In this document: piece by piece, positions 988 to 32,576 of the stretch | Layout of the letters: each line of letters starts with the position of its first letter | How positions within the stretch are numbered: the first letter of the stretch is position 1 | The notes under the pieces: generated by a model | What the model was told of the DNA's origin: nothing | The model's database searches: none | The model's input: only the letters and a program-made list of their open reading frames with translations | Virus genome (UHGV): UHGV-0098481 | Strand: one strand, 5' to 3' | Origin: a virus | DNA length: 48,822 nucleotides | Program-made: the position numbers and the translations under genes

Positions 988-3900
988 ATGAAAAAAAATT
1001 CTTTAAATGTGATTTTGGATACTGTTTTCTCGGCGAAAAGCATCAATGGTGAGAAATCTCATTCTTTTATATCGTATAAATTAGTTAAAGCTGTAGAAAA
1101 TTTAAGTGGATATGACTTGGATCTTTTCCTCAATCGTGCGATAAACCATCCTAACTTCCCTAGCAATATGGATTTTTCCTTACGAACAGTTTTTACAATT
1201 GAACAATCTAACACTATTGAATTTAAAAATTTCATTTCAGAATTGGTGTGGTACAAGCATATTTTCATACGATATAAAAAACACCTTAATGATATATTAT
1301 CGGCAAAGGCAAGACTTGAGAAGTTAGTTCTTTTCGCAACAGGTAGTGAATGTATAAAATATTTAGATGAAATAGAAAGCTCTTATGGAGTTAGTTTTTG
1401 GAGCATTGATGCTCGTCTCTTAATAAATAAAGTTTTGCTTAACGAAAGCAATGGGTTATATGTTAAATCAATTCTATCTAAAACCCACTATAAACTTACA
1501 GAGTTTATGTTACAGCAGCTATTATTTAAGCATCAAGTACATAACTTTGATGATTTTTCAAAGAACCTTATAAAAATACTAGATGATATGCGCACCACTC
1601 AAGATAATGGGTATGCTAGAAATTTAGCTGATGGTATTTCATCCTTTTTAATACCTTTAGAGTTTGATAAAAATATAGATCTCAAAAATAGAACCTTAGC
1701 ACCATTTACCAACCTTCCTTTAATAGATCAATTTATCATATTCCAGAGAACTATAAGCGATTTACAACTTCATGGAAATGGTTTAAGAAATAGCGAGTTA
1801 AGCTTAATTGCAGAAATTAACAGCTTTATTAAAAATAACTATCTCAACAATATTTTAGATGGAAGAGAGCGTAATATAGAGAATATTGATGAACACTATA
1901 AAAGTGTTATTCGACGTTATACTATAGGTGATTATACTGGGTGTATTTCAGAAATAAATTCAGTTCGAACGCAGAAGACAATTTTGCCATTAATTGAAAT
2001 ATATGCAAAATCCCATGTGTATCTTGATAAGAAAATTTCAGACTCATGCATATTCAATAAATTAACAAACTGGCTTATAGCAATTATAAAATGCGACAGA
2101 CGCGCTGGAAAATACATCGATGAATTTGAACTTTTAGCATCTAAGATATATTTCAATTCAAATTCATCCTCTCTATTCTTCACATTATATAATTTAATAA
2201 GTGATAACCATAATAAATTAAACATATCTCGTATAAATCTAACCAAAAATGGTTCCTTTGTAACATCCCTTCATTTGAATATAACAATCAAGGAACTATG
2301 GACTGAACTTGGAATAAAAGAGAATGAGATACCAAAATATCGATTATTTAAATTCAAAGACCTAGCAAATCTATCCTTTGATGAAATCAAAAAACACTAC
2401 GAAGTATACAATGATAATGTAATAATTCGCTCTGAATATTTAAAAGATTATACTAACTTTTTATTAGAAAATGAAAAGTATGAATTATGCATCCAATTTA
2501 TAGCTGAAAACTGCATCGGCAACCCCGCAAATTATTACTACTTCCCAATCCGAAAAATAATTGATTTTGTAAAAGACAATATTTTTGACTATGCAAGCGT
2601 GGCCTTATCTATATTGATAGATATTTTTGTCAAAAGCACATCAAACACTTCAAATGAGCTTCTTCTCGAAAGTTATGAGAGTTTAGTAGATATTTCAAAT
2701 ATTAATAGGCCATCTACCCATTATTGCTCTAAGCAATTAACTCCATTAGAGCACTATTTCCTTAAGTTTATCTGTATACCTTCCGTGATGGATTCAGACC
2801 CTTCATTCACAGGCACGGACGACTTGAAGAAGGAAAGAATTGCTATTATAGATCTATTATTAAAAGAACACGATGATGCAGATTTATTGAAAGAGAAAGA
2901 CGAAATTATAGATGAAATATCATTCGAAGAAATAAAAACAAAATATGAGACAGGAAAAATATTTGTTGATATAGAAAATTTAAAACGGGCAAAGCTTGAA
3001 AGATACAGATATTATTTTGATGCACTTAAGGATTCGCTTATTCTCGGACTAGAACCACCTGAAGACTTTGCTTTAATTACAGACGATGGGAATATCACAG
3101 CCATTCCATCTGGCGATACAAACTCTATAATCCATGAACTTCTAAAAGAACTAATCTCCGATTTTGTTAAAAATGAAAATTACGGTCTTGATAAATATTT
3201 GAGTGCAGATATACGGCATGGTGTTTTTGAAAATCAACTCAGATCAAGTGCTGAAAAATCGCAATTAATAACTGATATGGATGGTACTGGACAGTATTCG
3301 AAAAGCAATTTAATTATTGAGACATATCCATTAATTAACCCTATTATAAATAACGAAATAGGGACAGCAATAGCTGATTTCTCTTATCACTTTGACATTG
3401 AATTGGCTAAAGCCAATTCCTGGTTCAATGTCAAGACAATGCTCATAAGTGAATCACAGCAAGGTATGATTGATTTCCTCATTTCTGTTGATATGTTTAA
3501 TTCATTTAAAGCAGCAGTTTCAAATCAAGCATCTTTTGAGAAGTTTTTTGACGCTTGTATTAACTTCATGTGGGAAAGAACGTTCAGATGTTTGAATGAT
3601 ATTAAAGAGCGATTGCATTACGAATTTAAGAGGAATATTTTAGATTTAATTGCCACTCTTAGGCATCAAATTGATATCTATAGAAGACGTAGTTCCATGA
3701 GAGAAATCCAGGAGAAAATTGACCTCTTGGCCGAAAGCATTAATAAAGAAATTGCAACAGTCTGCGATTGGTTAAATGTACTTGAGTATAACGAGGAGAA
3801 AATATATAAAATATCATCCGTGATGCAGGCATGTAGGAAAACTTTTTTTAATATACACCATTGTTCTGATGATGCTATCGTTTTTGATTCAATGTATCAT

Positions 3901-7415: not shown

Positions 7416-8600
7416 TCAATTGACATCATTACCAATTCTTCCAATGCAATCAGCATACCACTGCATCATCTCCCTCCGCCCTTCCAGATACAAAGCATGG
7501 TTGTACGTCCCACGAATCGCATTCTTATCGACATGCGCAAGCTGGGTTTCAATCCATGCCGTATTGAACCCTTCCTCGTGCAAAATCGTACTCATCGTGT
7601 GACGGAAACCATGCCCCGTTACCTTCCCCGTATACCCAATCCGTTTGAATACCTGATTCATACTCGCTTCACTCATCGTCTTGCGGGGATCATTTCGCCC
7701 TGGGAATACCAGTGGATATTGCCCAGATATCACCTTGAGTTGTTGTACGATTTCCAGCGCTTGGGTAGATAGGGGGACAAGGTGAGGCCGTTTCATCTTC
7801 ATACGCTCTGCAGGTATTTCCCACACTGCTTTTTCAAGATCAAACTCACTCCAGAAAGCACCTCGTAGCTCGCCAGTACGAACTCCTGTAAGGATCAGCA
7901 GACGAGCGGCAAGAACAACTAACGGGCTTCCTGTGTAGCCTGCGAGAGCTTTAAAGAAGTCTGGTAACTCCTCAACAGTAAGGAAGGGATAATGCTTCGA
8001 TTCATGCCCTGACATTGCGCTGGTTAGATCCGCTGCAGGATTGTATTCCGCACGACCGGTAACGATGGCGTAACGAAAGACTTCACTGCAACGCTGGCGA
8101 ACCTTCTTGGCCTTCTCTGTCGCGCCACGGCTTTCCATTCGACGTAGCACATTCAGCAGAACCAAAGGCTTGATGTCATTCACCGGCAGTTGGCCAATAT
8201 AAGGGAAAATATCTTTATTGAAGGCTTCGATAATGTCGGAGGCATAACCTTCTGACCACCGGCTCACCTTCGTTCCGTGCCATTCAAGTGCCACAGCCTG
8301 AAACGTATTATTGAGCTGCACATCGCGAACCAACTTTTCTTCTTTCTTGGCAAACGATGGGTCGATACCTTCGGCCAGCTTTTTCTTGGCTTCATCACGC
8401 AGTGCCCTCGCTTGTGCAAGGGACACTGCCGGATAGACACCAAAAGCCATACGTTTCTCTTTTCCATTGAAGCGATATTTCATCCGCCAGTATCGAGAAC
8501 CAGAAGGAACAACTTCAAGATACAAGCCTGCACCATCTGCTAGCTTGTAGGCTTTCTCTCTGGGTTTAGCAGCATCTACCTGTCGAGCATTAAGCTTCAT
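7416..8600 (-). CDS. int: Tyrosine integrase, P4/CP4-type
   Basis: ORF 7416-8639, start taken at MKLNARQVDAAKP with AGGGAG upstream; C-terminal catalytic region with R...HGFRHT...Y pattern; immediately downstream of the tRNA 3' fragment on the same strand. Confidence 0.85.
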   Translation of the reverse strand: MKLNARQVDAAKPREKAYKLADGAGLYLEVVPSGSRYWRMKYRFNGKEKRMAFGVYPAVSLAQARALRDEAKKKLAEGIDPSFAKKEEKLVRDVQLNNTFQAVALEWHGTKVSRWSEGYASDIIEAFNKDIFPYIGQLPVNDIKPLVLLNVLRRMESRGATEKAKKVRQRCSEVFRYAIVTGRAEYNPAADLTSAMSGHESKHYPFLTVEELPDFFKALAGYTGSPLVVLAARLLILTGVRTGELRGAFWSEFDLEKAVWEIPAERMKMKRPHLVPLSTQALEIVQQLKVISGQYPLVFPGRNDPRKTMSEASMNQVFKRIGYTGKVTGHGFRHTMSTILHEEGFNTAWIETQLAHVDKNAIRGTYNHALYLEGRREMMQWYADCIGRIGNDVN

Positions 8601-8764
8601 TGGGGGCATCTCCCTGGACCGAACACAGAATGCCCCCACTTATGCCCCCAACTGCGACTTGATTTCGGTTGAGTCCAGTTGATAACAGGAGATAAGATAC
8701 GGGCCAGAAACCGCAGTATACGGGCTTTTAGTTGATTTCGGTAGACTTGGGAAGAGTTTGAAAT

Positions 8765-8810
8765 GGTGCCGATAATAGGAGTCGAACCTACGACCTTCGC
8801 ATTACGAATC
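8765..8810 (-). repeat. 46-nt 3' fragment of tRNA-Thr (anticodon loop CGT, T-arm GGTTCGA, CCA end); attachment-site core
   Basis: Reverse complement reads ATTCGTAATGCGAAGGTCGTAGGTTCGACTCCTATTATCGGCACCA; sequence 5' of this (8811 onward) does not continue a tRNA, so it is a partial att copy and not a gene. Confidence 0.8.
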
Positions 8811-9094
8811 TGTAGCACCAATCATAACTATCTGTTTTAGCAAGCATTAACCGCATTCACTAAGCTATAGTTGATGGCACAAACAGAAAGCTGATGCATG
8901 ATGTTGTCATGTGTATGTCACAAATACGGCACAACGATCTTCAAACATGTAGCCACACATCCACAGAAGAGCACAACGCCTTGCAATCAAGTGCAAAGCT
9001 TTGTGTGCATCAGTTTTGTCTCATAGGTAATGAGGCTTTAACTGCGATGCAGTAATACATACTAAAATTTACTTAAAATTCATAAATACACCAG

Positions 9095-9124
9095 ATAAAA
9101 ACAATCCCGCATTTTTTATGCGGG
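9095..9124 (-). terminator. Rho-independent terminator downstream of tailspike
   Basis: cccgcat / atgcggg stem with T-rich tract following on the minus strand. Confidence 0.6.
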
Positions 9125-9144
9125 ATATACTGCATTTATTGCAA

Positions 9145-11850
9145 CTACATTGCCATTAATATAAACATAGCCAATTCGTCATAACGAATTCCGTAGCGTC
9201 CTCCTGCTTTTTTTACAAGAATCATATCTCCTGTTTTATATTGAGAATAAATTTTCTCACCTGTATCAGGATCTGTGCTCTCTTCAGTTATCACCTCTTC
9301 ATCCCATACGTCAGGCCATTCATCGTAACACCAAAAAGCATATTTCTCAGGGTTTAAACCATGCTTTCTAAGAATATCCCCTACGGTTTGAGCGCCAACG
9401 CCAAAATGATACCTGGACGACTCAATTCCTTTGTGATTAATTGAGTCATTAAATTTAAATTTATAGATGACTGACTTTATTTCAATAGCGGCATCACGCT
9501 CTGCATTAAGAATATCATATCTTGTTTTAAGAGTTTCATCTGATGTATTGATTGACCCGGTTCCTGCATAAATAACAGAGCATCTGTTTGATGGCTGTCC
9601 AATAGCTTTAACATTATCATCAACAGGAGCTATTTTATTAGCATCTGCCAACCACCAGTCTGTTCCATCAGCGTGACCGATTCTTACTCTTATCCCACTT
9701 CTAATATTTAAACTTCCAGTATTACTCTGTAAATTACAATCTCCTGACGTTGGTCCAAGCAGTACAGTTTTACCAACACCACATACTACTCTGGCATTTC
9801 CTTTTTGTGATACGAGTCTTGACTCACCTCCTGACTGCTCAGGAAGAGATTTATGGTCTATAAATGCATCGCGGGGGTTAAATACACCGTCTCCAGAATT
9901 ATATCTTCCTCCTGTATAGTTGTTAAATACAGGACCCCAGTCAACGCCATTGCCTTCAGAGCACCCGACCATTCTAAGCACTCGAGTATTCCCTGCTGCA
10001 TATGGTAATGAGCTTGTTGATTGCCGGGAAGCTATCATACGTGCTCCATAACCAATAGCATTACCACCATTTATAGTTACATATGCTTGCTGGCTTTCGA
10101 AATATGTACTGTAAAAGTTCATATTTCCACAGTCATGTAGATGAATAAGAACATCATCCCATCCCTGAATGGTTCCTGCATGTACCTGTACACCGCGAAC
10201 TGGTTCCCCTGAAACCTCCATACACTCTGATGGTCGGCTGAATGGTTGAGACAGGTATTGCGATGTGGCAAGCAGATGTGTGTGGTGATACAGGCTGGTA
10301 ATGTAGCAATCGAAAAATTGCGTTCCCGCCATACCAAAGTTATCTATGTCATTTCGCCGTATAGTAGAACCTACTGTTGCCTCAGAAGCGTTAGACACTC
10401 CAGTAAATACTAACTTATCACCGGATACGGATAATCCTGAATAAGTGAAATTCCTGCCTCCAGATCTTAAAACCCCGGACGTTTCGAAGGTGTGGCTTGC
10501 TGACCATGGGATTTCGATAGTGCTGGACGTTACCGCTGTAATTCGGAATACATCATGGGCGCGGATCGAAACACCCTTGAATCCCTGGAATCTACAGTGA
10601 TAATAGTTTTCATCCTCGCCCTGAGCAGCCAGCGTGTCAGATACAGGAATGTTCGTTTTTAAAAGTGCCGTCTTGCGCCAGTATCCAACCACCTGCAAAT
10701 TGCGGTATTCATTGCCAAAAGACGCACGTGACCAAATACCTACATCCCACTCATCGCCAAGACCGGTATTTGCAATGTCTTTATAACCATCCAGACCATT
10801 GAAATATGGAACAATACGAAAGTTCTCAAGGCGAACACATCCTGTCTCAGGCATCAATATTGCGGCAGAGAATGGTTTAAGCGTGGCTCTTGTAGTCCCA
10901 TTAGCATCACCGTTAGTAAAATCCAATAAATCATATGATGACGCAGGTGCCGTTGTTGTATACGGGTCTTCGGAAGATGGATTAGAAACCACACCACCAC
11001 TAACATCCATATTAGAAACACAATCTACAGTATATTTTTTATTTCCTACCCCGTACATCAGGAATGTGGTCCCTGTGGTAATATCAGGAGCAAATGTTGC
11101 AGTATATCCTGAGACCCATTTGCCCACACCAAGACAAATTATCCCACCACCAGAAACAGGTGTTAACGTATCCGTTATTACATACGCATTATCAGTACCA
11201 TAAATAACCTTTCCTGTGTTAAGGGCAGCTTGCCACGCGGCCCAGTCTATTGACTGAGATAATGAGTCAACAAAAGGATATAAGGATTTTGCTTCAGAAA
11301 TTGAAGAAAACCACTCAGATAATGGATGATATTTCCCATCCCCAATTGCTCCAAATTGTTTTACATTTAAGAAAAGAGCATTGTTTTCATGCTGAGTTAT
11401 AGTTACAGCCCCGGTAAATGGCTGCCTTACCCCAATTAATGCATCACCTTTTGAATCATCATTAATGTATGCTCCTGATTGAGATAACTGCTCTTTGAAG
11501 TCTGGGCCAAACTGATCTGGATCGTATTTTAATACATTTGGAAAATAGAACTGCTTCGCACCATACGCATCATAAACAGCCATAGAATGGCCTTGCACAG
11601 TTACGAATTTGGCAATCTGTCCGTTATATACCGGATAACCAGCAGCGTTAATGATGATTGGTTGAGAAACAGGAACGTGAGAACCGTCTTCGTTCTCTAC
11701 ATAAACCTGAATCCGGTTTTCTGGATTTACCGGGTCAGCGTCAATTTTACCGATATAAATTTTTCCATTGGCAACCGCTTTAAAAGAACGCGCCATAGTG
11801 AAGAGTTGCGAAGGCATACTCACTACAACATTGGCTGTAATGTCTGTCAT
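9145..11850 (-). CDS. Tailspike protein: P22-like N-terminal head-binding domain, divergent receptor-binding body, C-terminal chaperone-like domain
   Basis: N-terminus [11 protein letters not shown]...[12 protein letters not shown]...VQGHSMA...LKYDPDQ closely matches the P22 gp9 head-binding domain; remainder unlike P22; C-terminal ...[11 protein letters not shown]... resembles auto-cleaving intramolecular chaperone domains. Confidence 0.85.
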
Positions 11851-11918
11851 TTAATTTGCTCCAGATACAAGAAATCGCCGCAGCATTGCCACAGTGATGC
11901 ATTATTAATCAAATAAAG

Positions 11919-11933
11919 AGACCGCTGTGGTCT
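11919..11933. promoter_or_regulatory. Operator-like inverted repeat AGACC-N5-GGTCT between divergent mnt and tailspike starts
   Basis: Dyad in the 146-bp intergenic region; form is similar to the P22 Mnt operator as remembered. Confidence 0.35.
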
Positions 11934-11996
11934 TATTGAGGATGCAACCAGCAGATAATAAGATGCCGATCCACTCACAAAAGCGAGGCATCAAGA

Positions 11997-12248
11997 ATGG
12001 GAAGAGATGACCCGCAATTTAATCTGCGGCTACCTTACGAATTAAAGGAAAAACTAAAACAGCGAGCCAAATCCAATGGCCGCTATCTTAATTCAGAATT
12101 AGTTCAGATAGTGACTGATGCTGTATCAAAGCCATCCAAAATTTCAGGCTATCGAGACGATGCGGAACGCATCGCTGATGAGCAGTCTGAACTTGTTAAG
12201 AAGATGGTGTTTGATACGCTGAAGGATTTGTACAAAAAACCCACCTGA
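11997..12248 (+). CDS. mnt: Mnt repressor (Arc/MetJ-type ribbon-helix-helix)
   Basis: 83 aa, near-identical to P22 Mnt as remembered (…RLPYELKEKLKQRAKSNGR…DAERIADEQSELVKKMVFDTLKDLYKK). Confidence 0.85.
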   Translation: MGRDDPQFNLRLPYELKEKLKQRAKSNGRYLNSELVQIVTDAVSKPSKISGYRDDAERIADEQSELVKKMVFDTLKDLYKKPT

Positions 12249-12262
12249 CGGTGGGTTTTATT
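12240..12262. terminator. Bidirectional rho-independent terminator between convergent mnt and the putative toxin gene
   Basis: cccacc-tgac-ggtggg hairpin flanked by A-run upstream and T-run downstream. Confidence 0.65.
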
Positions 12263-12680
12263 AGTGCTTGTATAGGTTGAACTCTCTATCAAGCCATATA
12301 ACAAAAAATGTCGATCCAAGACGATAACCAACCATGGCTTTCAAATCATCAAATCTAAAAGCCAAGAAATGATCTACGTCTTCCGTTATATGACTGGGGA
12401 TACCTGCTTTAATTGCACCCCTTGCAATCTTCTCAAATCCAAGCTTATGCCTACCTTGCTGCTTAATATCTGCCCATGTTAGTTGACTTAATCTGTATAA
12501 TTTATCAGCTAAGCCAGCTTTCTCATCTTTTTGGCATTTCGTTATGCAGTGAGAGCTTTGGATGTAACAGAATGAAAATTTCGGTTTCTTTTGATCTGAA
12601 TTCCCCCCTGACTGCGGCCCTAACTTTAACTTACCTGTAGATTCAGCAGGGGGGATAATCCTTTTAGATTTTCTTGCCAT
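12261..12680 (-). CDS. Hypothetical protein, candidate toxin partner of the Panacea-domain protein
   Basis: ~139 aa from MARKSKRIIPP...; starts 4 nt after the upstream ORF stop; basic N-terminus; no family assigned. Confidence 0.5.
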   Translation of the reverse strand: MARKSKRIIPPAESTGKLKLGPQSGGNSDQKKPKFSFCYIQSSHCITKCQKDEKAGLADKLYRLSQLTWADIKQQGRHKLGFEKIARGAIKAGIPSHITEDVDHFLAFRFDDLKAMVGYRLGSTFFVIWLDREFNLYKH

Positions 12681-12684
12681 CTCG

Positions 12685-13134
12685 TTAGTTAATCCGAGTT
12701 GCAAAGTACTCTGCCATCTCCTTAGAACTAATTTCAGAACCACCAACACCCTCAATATAGTTTGATCTCCATGGTGACTCTTCGTGTGTCATGTTCCTCA
12801 GTTTCCAGGCAGAAAATTGCCCAAAAACATCCCAGACTTCTTCTAATAGCTCTAACTGTTCTTCGCTGAATTTTTCAGCATCAAAAGACTCTGGAGAAGG
12901 GATAGCACCATTACCATATTGTTTATAACGGTGATAAAGCTCAGGGACAACAGGGCCATGCATCCAAGCTTCCATCTTATTCTGAAAAAGAGGCTCGCCA
13001 AGCAACGCCAATGAAAAACCCTGAGCATAGTAAACAAGCTTTTGTAATTTTAAATTAGAGATTGCGTCACCGCTATCCTCGTCACACCGCGACAGGAAGT
13101 AGTCGGCGACATCAAAACAAGTAAGCATGAACAC
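12685..13134 (-). CDS. DUF4065/Panacea-domain protein (SocA-like antitoxin family)
   Basis: 149 aa; LKLQKLVYYAQGFSLALLGEPLF...EAWMHGPVVPELYHRYKQYG pattern typical of the phage-associated Panacea domain. Confidence 0.7.
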   Translation of the reverse strand: MFMLTCFDVADYFLSRCDEDSGDAISNLKLQKLVYYAQGFSLALLGEPLFQNKMEAWMHGPVVPELYHRYKQYGNGAIPSPESFDAEKFSEEQLELLEEVWDVFGQFSAWKLRNMTHEESPWRSNYIEGVGGSEISSKEMAEYFATRIN

Positions 13135-13502
13135 ACCTCCATCTTGATAGCCACAGCTAAGTATCCAACTATGTCAAATGTCATTTAATACTATAACAAA
13201 GCTATCAGCAATCCTTCTGAGGCTAACTTACAACCACTTTAGCGACATGTTTAAACCATTACGTTTCACATTTACTGCATTTTCGCCGAAGTTACCTATA
13301 AGGTAATGTCACATTTCCTGCAAGTTTCATGCAATGTTGAAAAGTGAGCTATTCACTTTTCTATGACACCAAACACCAAAAATAGCACTTTTTGCTAAAT
13401 CATTCGTCCAAGTTGTGGATGGTTTGTCGTTGACACGTTTTCACACACCACTCCACCAATAAAGTATCATCTGGTATCCTGCTCAAAACTAAGGAGGTTG
13501 GT

Positions 13503-13832
13503 GTGCTTGAATGGTTTCTGTTGGCTGCATTAGTCGTTTCTGGTTTGGTGTATGAGTATCGAATGCACTCTCTAACAAAAAAAATAGGAATTCTAGAAAA
13601 CGAATATTGTGCTCTCAAATCCTCACTGGAACGTGAGCAAGGGGACTTAAAAATCTCTCTGTCTAGCATTGAGCGTTCTATAGAGAGCTTAGAGGATAAG
13701 GTTGATCGTATAAAGAATGAGGATATTCATGATATTAAGGACGACATATCCTTCTTAAAATCTTGGTTGAAAAATGTTGGGAAAATTGCCACATCAACAC
13801 GAGATAAGCTCAATCCATCCATGGATGACTAA
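13503..13832 (+). CDS. Small membrane-anchored coiled-coil protein (moron in the sieA-equivalent slot)
   Basis: GTG start 5 nt after AAGGAGG; N-terminal TM helix (WFLLAALVVSGLVY) then heptad-rich region; convergent with gp16. Confidence 0.6.
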   Translation: MLEWFLLAALVVSGLVYEYRMHSLTKKIGILENEYCALKSSLEREQGDLKISLSSIERSIESLEDKVDRIKNEDIHDIKDDISFLKSWLKNVGKIATSTRDKLNPSMDD

Positions 13833-15968
13833 TTACTCCTGTGCCATTCCGCTTAGTGATGCCACAATTCCAGCCCTTGCTAAACGCTGGAACTCTTCGT
13901 TTCCTAGTGCCTCGCGTATTGCTTTTACGGCGGCCTTATTTGCCATAAATCTGCGTTCCGCCGCCGCTAATGCACCATCACTTGCCCCAACCTTAACGGC
14001 CTTTGTTGCCTCTTGAACAGCCTTTTCAATAGCGTAACGACCACTTCTAGTTGCGGATAATTTCGCTATCGCTCCTTTTGCCATTGCATCAATTGCTCCA
14101 CCTGCAGCGCCACCCGCTATTGCTCCAATAACGCCTCCTCCAGAGAACCCTGCGATAGTGCCAGTAGTTCTAAAAGCGCCAGACAATGCGCTCTCTAAAA
14201 CTGGATGAAGGCCATTCTCAAGAGTGCTAATGGCTGGCATAGATCGCCCTGTCTGTTCAACATATCGAAGTGGCTTTGTTGCTGCTCGTGCAAGTTCTCC
14301 GTATGAACTTGTAATCCTGCCAAGTTCTGGAGAATATCGACTAATTGCCTTCACGTTTTGTGGGGTAAGAATAGTCGCGATATGCTTAATTCCAGCCTCT
14401 TCAGACTTACCTCCGCGTACCCCTTGCGACATTGCATCTTGTAATATTGATGCAATTGCTGGCGCGCGTTCCGACTCAGGTAGGGCGCTTATTATTTTAT
14501 GGAACTGACCTGTTCCACTTTTTGCTGAACCCTGTAACGCCTTAGATCCATTAGTTACCAACTGATCAGTTGCAAGGTCTCTACCAAACGCTGCTTCAGC
14601 CTGTTCTTGTGCTGTAAATCTTGCCTTTGACAGATCATTAGCTTTTTGCCAGTCATCAAGAAAACCACCATTTTGAGCCATTATGCGCATATCTTCCGTT
14701 GCTGCATCACGAAGCTCAGCCATGCGCCTTGCCGTATTTGCCTCACCAGACCTTATATACTTCTGCTCTGCGTCAGCAAGTTTACTTCGCCATGCCTTCA
14801 TGGCATCAAACGTGATTCCTTTTTTACCAGTTTTAGCATAAGCAGATGCGAATTGTTTCATCTCAGGAGTTAGCGGCATGCCAGCCAAAATATCACCCTG
14901 AATTGTAGCGTTCAGGTTTGACATTCTGGCCTTTGCGTCAGGCATCGTGGAGCGAACGCTATCCCATGCGGCCTTTTCTGAATTTTTCATTTTATCAATA
15001 CTTGCCAAAACCCTTTGTTTTATGGCTGCACTTTTTTCTGATGCAGTTCCTGCTTCAGCCCCAAACTCATCCAATGCTGAGTTAAATTTCGACTCTATTT
15101 CACTGAATGCTTTGGTGTGTGCATCCTGTGTAATTCCGGGCTTTGACGCCAGAATCCCCTCCGCCTGAGCAAGACCACGACTACCTGATCTCATGCCAGG
15201 AGTTAATGCGTTGATATCTATTCCAGCAGTATCTGCTGCTTTTGCTATTTCTTCTGACACATTAGCTGACTGTCTGGCGATAATCTCTCTTCCTGTACCA
15301 GACTTTGCCATTTTCGAAACATCAGCAGCGGAATTTATTGCCCCGCCACCAAGAACTTGAGGTGATTTAGAGGTTAAGATCCTTCCAGCCCCAGAAAGTA
15401 TCCCCTGAGCACCAATATTGATACCACCGTTAATGGCAGCATTTTGTGCAAAGTCGCCCTCCTGATTTGCAGCATCAGCAAGAGAACCTGCAATCATGTT
15501 TCCTGCGGAACCGATATCTCCAGCGAGCTTTGCTGGCGCTCCAGCAGCTTTTGCCGCTGTGCCAATTGGCAGGAGATACCCACCAATTGTTTCACCGGCT
15601 TGCGCGTAAGGGTCTGTCGGTCGATCGACAGGACGATAGACATCATCCAATACTTTTGGCCCACCAAGCCCCTGACTGATTGCATTAATCAGACTTGCGC
15701 CACCCTGCAATACGTCAAATGGTATGTTTACCAGACCACGACCAGCCTGTTCTGCAATTTGCCCTGCACTTTGACCACCAGTGAGCCAATCGCCAGCTTG
15801 TTGCATCAATGATGGTTCTTCCCGTGTTGGTGCATTATTGGCCTGATTAACTGTTTGTTGCTGAACAGCCTGACCAGCAAAATACTCATCAATGGCGGTG
15901 CCAATATCTTCGGTGCTCGTACCATCAGGAAAGGTAAATGTCTTACCGTTTGCAGTTACTTTCATCAT
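13833..15968 (-). CDS. Ejection protein gp16-like
   Basis: Position and size in P22-type gene order after gp20; Ala/Gly-rich. Confidence 0.75.
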
Positions 15969-31568: not shown

Positions 31569-31855
31569 GGCTTAATCTTCCCCTCCTTCAGCAGTATCGC
31601 CTGCGTCCTGATCACGCCTTCGAGGTGGTAAAGTCTGGCGTCTTTGTTGTCGAGATTATGGGTGCGTCGGTCGATTTCATCGTGACACGCGCTACAAGCC
31701 CATGCGCCGATCAGGTCGTCAGGCTTCATTCCCGTTCCACAAATTCCAGCCATCCGGTAATGTGCCAGAACTGTAGTTTCAGGGTTGCCATTGCATACGC
31801 CGTAAATACGTACCTGGCATTCTCTGCCGCGCGCTTCTTTGCGTAGGTTAGCCAT
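31565..31855 (-). CDS. YbcO/NinX-like protein (DUF1364)
   Basis: 96 aa; MANLRKEARGRECQVRIYGVCNGNPETTVLAH...CSACHDEIDRR matches DLP12 YbcO as remembered. Confidence 0.75.
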   Translation of the reverse strand: MANLRKEARGRECQVRIYGVCNGNPETTVLAHYRMAGICGTGMKPDDLIGAWACSACHDEIDRRTHNLDNKDARLYHLEGVIRTQAILLKEGKIKP

Positions 31856-32576
31856 TAAGCAGCCTCCCCTGTTACTTTCAGCATTCCGTTATCGAGCAGC
31901 TTTCTGGTCAGCCACTGTTGACCACGCCCGGTTATTTTTGTGGTGAACGATATCTGTATTCCGTGATTTGTGTTGACCGCTGTTTCTTTCACTGTGAAAT
32001 AGCCGCGATCCATATATTCCTGCATTGGCACATTGCGCCGGGAACCTGAAGCAATAAGGATTTTGTGATCACGCATCCACGCAAACAGTTTGTTTGGACC
32101 AATACCGACAACCTTTGCAAAGTTTCCAATCAAAATTCCGCTGGCCTCGCCAACGCGATCGGCAAACTCAACTTTAGGTGCGGCAATTGCGAGCTGGTTT
32201 TCCAGCTGCATTTTCTGCTCAGCAAGATCAGCAGCAAGGCGCAACGCTTCCGGTAGCGTTTTGGGGATATTAACCGCAGCTTCTTCAAGCTCTCGCCAAC
32301 GGTCAACAAGGCGAGCGGTGAACTCTGGCGACAACTGGGCAACAACAACAATACTATCTCGCTTACCTTGTTCGCCTTCGAAGACGTAATGCTCGTACTG
32401 AACATTGAACCTAAGTTATTGATTCTTTCGGAAACCTCAATTTGAGGAAGCCGGATAACACCATTTTTAGCCAGCGTTTCGATGGTACGTTTCACATTGT
32501 CATGACGCTTACCCACCAACTCAGCGATTTCAATGCTTGTCATTTTGATGGCATTGCCATTTATTAACTCATTCAT
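31855..32576 (-). pseudogene. Rha-family regulatory protein, interrupted by a -1 frameshift near 32408-32411
   Basis: N-terminal Rha domain in ORF 32130-32576 runs into nonsense after ...RINNLG; correct continuation (FNVQYEHYVFEGEQG...SPEFTARLVDRW...) is in the frame of ORF 31855-32334; consistent with loss of one T in GGTTTC. Confidence 0.65.

Follow-up and report, generated by a model that had tools for sequence, protein, structure and literature searches.

An orphan mnt gene divergent from the tailspike gene

UHGV virus genome UHGV-0098481 (48,822 nucleotides, the whole of which is referred to below as the window) contains a P22-like (Lederbergvirus-type) prophage of Escherichia coli that spans from ~9.1 kb to the right end of the window. 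This prophage carries a homologue of mnt, the repressor gene at the head of the P22 immI region, immediately beside its tailspike gene. In P22 (BK000583), mnt lies between gene 16 and gene 9 (tailspike), and immI has the order mnt–Pmnt/Pant/Oarc/Omnt–arc–sar–ant. The window has kept this position, together with a two-domain Mnt and the gene 9 leader, but it lacks arc, sar, ant, Oarc and t_ant, and its Pant is destroyed. On arc, ant and Pant, the window locus falls outside the definition of a complete immI region.

A preliminary description of this DNA had reported an 83-aa Mnt homologue 146 bp from a divergent tailspike gene, no arc or ant beside it, and an operator-like dyad in between. All of this was borne out. 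The two open reading frames (ORFs; Table 1) are separated by exactly 146 bp (11851–11996), and the dyad, AGACC-N5-GGTCT, is present at 11919–11933. When P22 Arc was compared with the window by tblastn, the sole significant match was mnt itself, and the spacer contained no arc-like ORF. P22 Ant had its best tblastn match in the window at E = 0.11, in a roi gene at ~32.1 kb, and no homologue was found. A few bases beyond the operator lies the junction to a ~55-bp conserved gene 9 leader, from which it follows that the locus lacks arc, sar, ant, Oarc and t_ant. The arc–ant junction, which encodes sar, was likewise absent from the locus, and an Rfam scan of positions 8000–14000 (E ≤ 1) gave chance-level matches on the mnt terminator only and no sar, the presence of a sar model in Rfam being unverified.

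Predicted Mnt protein and its recognition strand

The predicted protein carries both domains of Mnt. An N-terminal Arc-like ribbon-helix-helix (RHH) DNA-binding domain (Pfam Arc, PF03869, 1.4e-20, residues 3–50) is followed by a C-terminal coiled-coil tetramerisation domain (Pfam Repressor_Mnt, PF11423, 2.2e-18, residues 53–80). Matches to the solved structures of P22 Mnt (1MNT, E = 2e-33, residues 3–77) and of the tetramerisation domain (1QEY, E = 3.3e-12, residues 53–83) covered the same regions. Identity to P22 Mnt was 74.7–75%, and the recognition strand differed by three substitutions (His6 to Gln, Phe9 to Leu and Met11 to Leu), so that the earlier wording ‘essentially P22 Mnt’ was overstated. 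The P22-type recognition residues of Mnt (Arg2, His6, Asn8 and Arg10) were kept with the exception of His6, replaced by Gln. Judged by fold, tetramerisation domain and operator architecture, the protein belongs to the Mnt family, but not with P22-type specificity.

The strand PQFNLRLP of the orphan Mnt is nearly that of P22 Arc (PQFNLRWP), which shares the RHH fold family. Arc, however, has 53 aa, is without the Mnt tetramerisation domain and binds the 21-bp Oarc (TAGA boxes), whereas the orphan protein retains both the N-terminal arm (GRDDP) and the C-terminus of Mnt.

One residue sets the window copy apart. Position 30, at the start of helix B in the motif G-R-S-x-N, is Tyr (S30Y), and Ser occupied this position in 123/123 other Mnt/Arc-type motifs collected. 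In the structures of the RHH proteins Arc, MetJ and CopG this motif touches the DNA backbone, and presumably does so in Mnt. Two RefSeq E. coli genomes, CS5L and 23CRST013, were 100% identical over the mnt region.

A candidate Omnt-type operator beside Pmnt and the loss of Pant

The dyad forms part of an imperfect 17-bp palindrome (Table 1). By its own statistics it is not significant, as chance alone would give 1.07 occurrences of its consensus at ≤3 mismatches in a window of this size, and an inverted-repeat search with a seed of 6 found none in the spacer (the exact arms are only 5 bp). We took the dyad as real because it is conserved in related loci. When the spacer was aligned with immI as annotated in P22 (BK000583), the dyad fell at the position of Omnt. 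P22 Omnt with its flank reads CTCAAT-AGGTCCAC-G-GTGGACCT, and the window dyad, in P22 orientation, reads CTCAAT-AAGACCAC-A-GCGGTCTC. By the shared flank (CTCAATA/TATTGAG) and the equal distance to the Pmnt −35 hexamer, the predicted operator is homologous in position to P22 Omnt. In both phages the site is a 17-bp palindrome with a centre base pair that adjoins the Pmnt −35, and, relative to P22, an identical pair of changes appears in each half-site of the window (AGGTCCAC to AAGACCAC). The operator centre lies 71 bp from the mnt ATG in the window versus 66 bp in P22. A window-wide scan at ≤3 mismatches found no second operator, making the site unique in the prophage and leaving no other cis target for Mnt there.

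The operator adjoins a Pmnt homologue with the 17-bp spacing of P22 Pmnt (TTGAGA-17-TATCAT), and this was the only conserved promoter-like element within the intergenic region. In contrast to P22 Pant (TTGACA-17-TATATT), neither Pant hexamer is intact in the window (TTGACA has become TCGGCA and TATATT has become TGCATC), and these down-mutations are fixed across the orphans. A standard promoter scan of the window spacer gave 0 tailspike-directed promoters. A relaxed scan (≥7/12 consensus matches), in which the controls P22 Pant and P22 Pmnt scored 11/12 and 10/12, detected no tailspike-directed sigma-70-like promoter in the spacer of either the window or Gally, the E. coli LF82 prophage described below.

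Table 1 Features of the mnt–tailspike locus in the window.
Feature	Position	Strand	Description
mnt	11997–12248	+	83-aa RHH repressor; Gln6 specificity class; C-terminal tetramerisation coiled coil; S30Y
Tailspike gene	9145–11850	−	901 aa; P22-type head-binding N-terminus and differing receptor-binding body
Candidate Omnt-type operator	11918–11934	both	Imperfect 17-bp palindrome GAGACCGC-T-GTGGTCTT; centre 11926
Pmnt −35 hexamer	11936–11941	+	TTGAGG (P22: TTGAGA); 1 bp from operator; from alignment with annotated P22 Pmnt
Pmnt −10 hexamer	11959–11964	+	TAAGAT; 17-bp spacer; Salmonella orphans TATGAT, P22 TATCAT
mnt ribosome-binding site (RBS)	11985–11988	+	GAGG; 8 nt ahead of ATG; invariant across orphan alignment
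Degenerate Pant remnant	11941–11969	−	−35 TCGGCA (11969–11964), −10 TGCATC (11946–11941), spacer 17
Gene 9 (tailspike) leader	11851–11905	−	RBS GGAG (11862–11859); small hairpin 11894–11878; homologous to the ~55 bp that precede gene 9 in P22
Bidirectional intrinsic terminator	12234–12262	both	CCCACC-TGAC-GGTGGG with A/T-run flanks; ends mnt (+) and convergent moron operon (−)

Residue 6 and the operator half-sites co-vary across mnt loci

To place the window locus in context, 80 loci from IMG/VR and 30 species-representative genome loci were classified together with reference phages. The orphan arrangement was found in Gally, vB_EcoP-720R6, ST160, SE1, ST64T, L, ST104, SPN9CC and others, and mnt plus spacer occurred at ≥80% coverage in 112/5426 complete E. 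coli genomes (about 2%). Sixty-nine loci, including the window, made up a Gln6 class without arc or ant, with the N-terminus MGRDDPQFNLRLPYEL (a few copies carried a single substitution). All 69 conserve a cognate-type 17-bp palindromic operator beside its own divergent promoter. The operators were exact GACCAC-N-GTGGTC palindromes in 62/69, centred 71 bp from the ATG, and one position off in 7/69. The window is among the latter, with one mismatch to the class consensus (G at 11924) that turns one half-site into GACCGC, a variant shared with three other orphan loci. The centre base was free (T25, C21, A14, G9), which fits a protein-bound dyad.

A second, His6 class with arc comprised 15 loci (N-terminus MARDDPHFNFRMP), in 13 of which ant was visible, the remaining two contigs being cut. 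Here the operator was an exact GTCCAC-N-GTGGAC in 15/15. Symmetric half-site changes of this kind would be the pattern expected when a dimer of dimers switches specificity.

The same operator core as in the enteric orphan Mnt class recurred in more distant company. A group of IMG/VR loci (L121–L135, G+C content 0.54–0.59) encodes ~140-aa Pseudomonas-type RHH proteins (MSREDPQFKLRMP..., strand PQFKLRMP), and three tandem near-perfect GGACCAC-N-GTGGTCC palindromes precede each gene, one of them overlapping the promoter. These sites give independent support for the link between residue and half-site. A scan for the orphan-type operator together with an Arc-like PQFN gave only such Pseudomonas-type RHH repressors, and the loci are not ant phages.

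Further classes carried different dyads in the corresponding place with respect to the −35. These were the Sf101/VSe13 class (strand AQFHLRLP, dyad ATACC-N5-GGTAC), a Phlomobacter locus (ATATCAC-C-GTGATAT) and, as another class with a different dyad, the Proteus phage Brookers. E. coli phage N7 has a Gln6 Mnt-type protein but the site TAGTAC-G-GTGCTA, and residue 6 is therefore not the sole determinant of specificity. The N7 gene (1288–1530, minus strand, ‘arc family DNA-binding protein’) appears to have been annotated with a start too far downstream, as an in-frame upstream GTG gives MARNDPQFNVRMP... with a full Mnt-type recognition strand. CUS-3-type loci, with two mnt paralogues and ant but no arc, contained no Omnt-like dyad and were uninformative.

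Among the orphans, those of the Salmonella phages ST64T, ST104, L, SE1 and ST160 share with the window the orientation divergent from gene 9 (across a 135-bp spacer), the Gln6 N-terminus, the operator core and the Pmnt homologue. They differ in protein sequence (69–90% identity, the C-terminal half of phage L Mnt having diverged), in a 13-bp indel beside the operator, in a better Pmnt −10 and in their flanking moron genes and tailspike body. Gally (OV696608) is alike in arrangement, with Mnt 98.8% identical and 97.7% DNA identity over the tailspike start, spacer and mnt. Unlike the window, Gally has the consensus Ser30, a perfect operator (AGACCAC-T-GTGGTCT) and other moron genes past the mnt terminator.

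Orphan mnt is maintained under purifying selection

Between the window mnt and those of the Salmonella orphans there were 19–21 synonymous and 8–10 non-synonymous differences, equating to a synonymous divergence (dS) of 0.45–0.52 and a ratio of non-synonymous to synonymous divergence (dN/dS) of 0.08–0.11. The ORF was full length in 66/69 loci. From operator to ATG, E. coli and Salmonella orphans were ~85% identical (hand count); this exceeds the unconstrained expectation at a dS of ~0.5, so the promoter, leader and operator region is conserved as well. The orphan mnt family is thus maintained under purifying selection and is not decaying.

Most of the degraded mnt copies were seen in a group of E. 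coli-type loci with a ~425-bp spacer (L025, L036, L053–L057 and L065–L067). These keep mnt, operator, leader and a remnant of the tailspike start, after which come a ~285-bp AT-rich insert and a new start (MTNM...). The arrangement looks like the scar of a tailspike-module exchange.

An ant-bearing class shares the orphan-type operator

A scan of IMG/VR for AGACCAC-N-GTGGTCT returned at least 120 matches, which were sorted by neighbouring genes. Among the matches listed, 43 were orphan mnt–tailspike loci, 72 had no RHH, ant or head-binding gene nearby and presumably arose by chance, and two were of other kinds (one RHH-only, one with a head-binding match alone). The remaining three (L136, L189 and L200) were complete immI cassettes on ES18/SPN3UB-like siphovirus contigs, in the order mnt-like gene (MARDDPQFNLRMTQELK), strong Pant (TTGACA), ATCAATAAGACCACGGTGGTCTC, arc-like gene and P22-type ant. 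Ant-bearing phages that share the orphan-type operator therefore exist. Their Gln6-type Mnt begins MARDDPQFNLRM, and the operator, given as AAGACCACGGTGGTCT, stands before arc and ant; operator and flank (AATAAGACCACGGTGGTCT) are identical to those of the orphans. They differ from the orphans in the strong Pant, the arc-like gene and ant that they keep, as well as in the Mnt C-terminus and the virion type. The cassette likely represents the ancestral type of the orphan class.

As possible targets of Mnt in trans, the isolates N7, UPF_BP1, Midgardsormr38, SPN3UB and S135 were checked, and the orphan-type operator was not found in them. The mnt–arc segment of the siphovirus cassettes occurred in 0/5426 complete E. 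coli genomes. The preliminary description had considered arc or ant homologues that act in trans from elsewhere. Within the window, the only ANT-domain gene was a roi homologue (31855–32576, minus strand; Rha N-terminus and ANT/KilAC domain) split into two overlapping ORFs. It measures 851 nt versus 852 nt for the intact gene in N7, HK140 and Gally (97–98% identity), and the split reflects a frameshift or a sequencing error. We rejected it as a hidden Mnt target, as it is an ordinary nin-region gene of lambdoid phages, is frameshifted in the window and has no Mnt-type operator nearby.

Terminator, tailspike and neighbouring genes

The terminator that closes mnt folds at −18.1 and −15.8 kcal/mol (z = −4.3 and −4.1), and phages L and epsilon34 have terminators annotated at the equivalent place after mnt. 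On the other side of the spacer, the tailspike N-terminus matched the P22 Head_binding domain (3.6e-65). Its C-terminus gave weak matches to End_tail_spike and to the Peptidase_S74 intramolecular chaperone (endosialidase-type), and the domain content suggests a capsule- or O-antigen-specific depolymerase module that differs from that of P22. The hairpin in the gene 9 leader, ~25 nt upstream of the tailspike start, has a 5-bp stem and a triloop. Its left arm varies by phage (GUGGC, GUAGC, GCAGC) and still pairs with the constant right arm GCUGC/GCUGU; its fold energy was no better than that of shuffled sequences.

Between gp16 and mnt lies a two-gene moron (12261–13134, minus strand), co-directional with the tailspike gene. 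It consists of a SocA/Panacea-domain antitoxin (12685–13134, PF13274 at 8e-25) and a ~139-aa partner (ATG near 12680, to 12264) that matched phrog_8366 and, weakly, the PADLOC model NsnC (4e-6). The pair looks like a PanA-type toxin–antitoxin or defence pair whose toxin is uncharacterised. Between gp16 and this pair, a 109-aa ORF (13503–13832, plus strand) matched phrog_5962 (unknown function); its position and orientation are those of the hkcB-like genes of HK620, epsilon34 and CUS-3. A P4-type tyrosine integrase (407 aa, 7416–8639, minus strand), encoded immediately outside the prophage on the tailspike side, is probably part of a neighbouring island and not of the P22-like phage. ARAGORN found no tRNA genes in the window.

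Discussion

The orphan layout is common and already published (ST64T, ST104, L, Gally), and is an ordinary variant of the P22-like ‘ant moron’. Ant morons of Salmonella phages with mnt only have been described (PMC2629481, PMC8022706), and the arrangement has also entered the literature via Zaworski et al. According to Villafane et al. 2008 (PMC2629481), the ant morons of ST64T, ST104 and Para1 hold only mnt and one unknown gene, and the same authors raised for P22 the idea of an effect on polymerases heading into the tailspike gene, as considered below. Experimental data for the orphan class come from Gally only, in the work of Misson et al. 2023 (PMC9928086). There, mnt rose 40-fold in macrophages, and genes 13, 14, 16 (tailspike) and 17, on both strands, rose with it while the upstream injection genes were silent. 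With both strands of an AT-rich block (G+C content 0.39–0.42) involved, this co-induction looks regional rather than Mnt-specific. The two alternatives put forward in the preliminary description, regulation of the tailspike gene by Mnt or a relic of an immI deletion, correspond to a published open question.

P22 Mnt represses Pant and, in classical in vitro work, stimulates Pmnt only indirectly, by removing promoter competition; an operator with the geometry seen in the window does not repress Pmnt in P22. Against this background, we favour, with a probability of about 0.55, the reading that the locus is a self-contained and still-functional mnt–Pmnt–Omnt cassette, left from an immI of a different specificity class (Gln6/AAGACCAC and not His6/AGGTCCAC). 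The measurable and regulated transcription of mnt in Gally counts for this reading. In such a cassette, a Mnt tetramer would bind the 17-bp operator, the centre of which lies ~45 bp upstream of the predicted start of its own (Pmnt) transcript. The direct cis role would be to set the level of Mnt's own synthesis, upwards or downwards. Late-operon polymerases entering the tailspike gene would also find the bound tetramer in their path, along with the Pmnt transcript that converges on them, and polymerases from the co-directional moron operon would meet the same obstacle before reaching it. Any effect on the tailspike would then come through roadblock or collision and not through promoter repression. 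In addition, Mnt would be on hand in trans to counter invading phages with an ant gene behind the same operator type.

Several observations weigh against a functional cassette. P22 Mnt helps Pmnt only via shut-off of Pant, and Pant is gone in the window, so a cis effect is not guaranteed. The window Pmnt is itself weak (8/12 consensus matches), and the window copy, with S30Y and an operator mismatch, may be impaired. Two loci (L066 and L067) have a stop at codon 53 together with operator mutations, and dN/dS reached 0.6–1.4 in several loci with the ~425-bp spacer. Deletion of mnt from Gally left survival in macrophages unchanged (Misson et al. 2023, PMC9928086), and in overnight lysogeny broth (LB) Gally mnt was at background, with 13 normalised reads versus a median of 15.6 (PMC9928086).

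Several of these points speak for a functionless relic, in which mnt and its operator persist after the loss of arc–ant by hitch-hiking in a linker, conserved for recombination, that joins the variable moron region to the head-binding domain of the tailspike. The mutant without phenotype in the assay used, the background reads in LB and the stops or raised dN/dS in several loci are all in line with it, as is the fact that the mnt–leader block has stayed together also in loci where a new tailspike start was inserted. Hitch-hiking, however, predicts no protein-level constraint, in conflict with the low dN/dS that separates E. coli and Salmonella orphans at a dS of ~0.5. The relic also sits poorly with operators that are exact palindromes in all but a few loci and free only at their centre, and with the conservation of the Pmnt hexamers and RBS. 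For the family we hold a relic to be unlikely; for the window copy, given S30Y and the operator mismatch, it is possible. The proposal that the locus is the relic of an immI deletion therefore stands in part. It is a deletion derivative that has lost arc, sar, ant and t_ant, but the intact ORFs, the low dN/dS and the co-variation of operator and recognition strand contradict its decay.

In P22, Mnt made by the prophage silences ant of a superinfecting P22, and Ant inactivates the repressors of heterologous lambdoid phages. By analogy with this genetics, prophage mnt might silence the ant promoter of invaders with the same operator, so that their antirepressor could not induce the resident prophage. 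The siphovirus cassettes, with the exact orphan-type operator at a strong Pant followed by ant, would be suitable targets. Such targets are rare, however (3 versus 43 orphans among the at least 120 scan matches), and the mnt–arc segment is missing from the complete E. coli genomes. Moreover, operators of a different type are used by the E. coli P22-like N7 and by SPN3UB and S135 of Salmonella, and a purely trans role leaves the conservation of the cis operator unexplained. We regard immunity in trans as an improbable account of the locus.

Equally tentative is the idea that the Gln6/AAGACCAC Mnt has been repurposed, either as a condition-responsive switch that gates the right-end block (morons, tailspike and downstream gene) or as a dedicated ‘anti-antirepressor’ immunity gene against induction by ant-carrying invaders. 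We consider this doubtful; if the anti-antirepressor version were true, such a function would have been selected independently in the ST64T/Gally, Sf101/VSe13 and Brookers Mnt classes.

That Mnt represses a tailspike promoter located inside the 146-bp spacer, as the preliminary description had proposed, is quite unlikely. The operator does lie between the two genes, and the joint rise of tailspike and mnt in Gally with upstream late genes at background indicates that some local or read-through transcription enters the tailspike gene. Yet neither the window nor Gally has a tailspike-facing −35/−10 pair at ≥7/12 (P22 Pant: 11/12), the down-mutations in the two Pant hexamers are fixed across the orphans, and in Gally the neighbouring genes 13, 14 and 17, which lie on both strands, rise as well, a pattern that indicates a regional effect or read-through out of the co-directional moron gene rather than relief of Mnt repression. 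It is very improbable that the dyad acts in RNA, as a hairpin or weak terminator preceding the tailspike gene, instead of as a protein site, and we rejected the terminator reading on fold energy and the unconserved T-run: a terminator scan does flag 11933–11919 (minus strand, followed by CTTTATTTGA), but the fold is only −6 kcal/mol (14/200 shuffles fold as well or better), the T-run is missing in Salmonella orphans, the conservation persists across the would-be loop and leaves only the one centre base free, a pattern not needed for a hairpin, and the dyad aligns to Omnt and not to t_ant.

To the published picture, the present analysis adds the co-variation of operator and recognition strand, the loss of Pant, purifying selection, a cognate ant-bearing class and two rare deviations in the window copy (S30Y and the operator mismatch). 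The contrast between Gln6/AAGACCAC and His6/AGGTCCAC provides, within a classic RHH model system, a clean switch of specificity that arose in nature. If orphan Mnt has a real role, this would explain the persistence, in ~2% of complete E. coli genomes and in many Salmonella phages, of a repressor that has lost its textbook target, and it would be a further example in which a regulatory module of a phage survives the circuit it belonged to.

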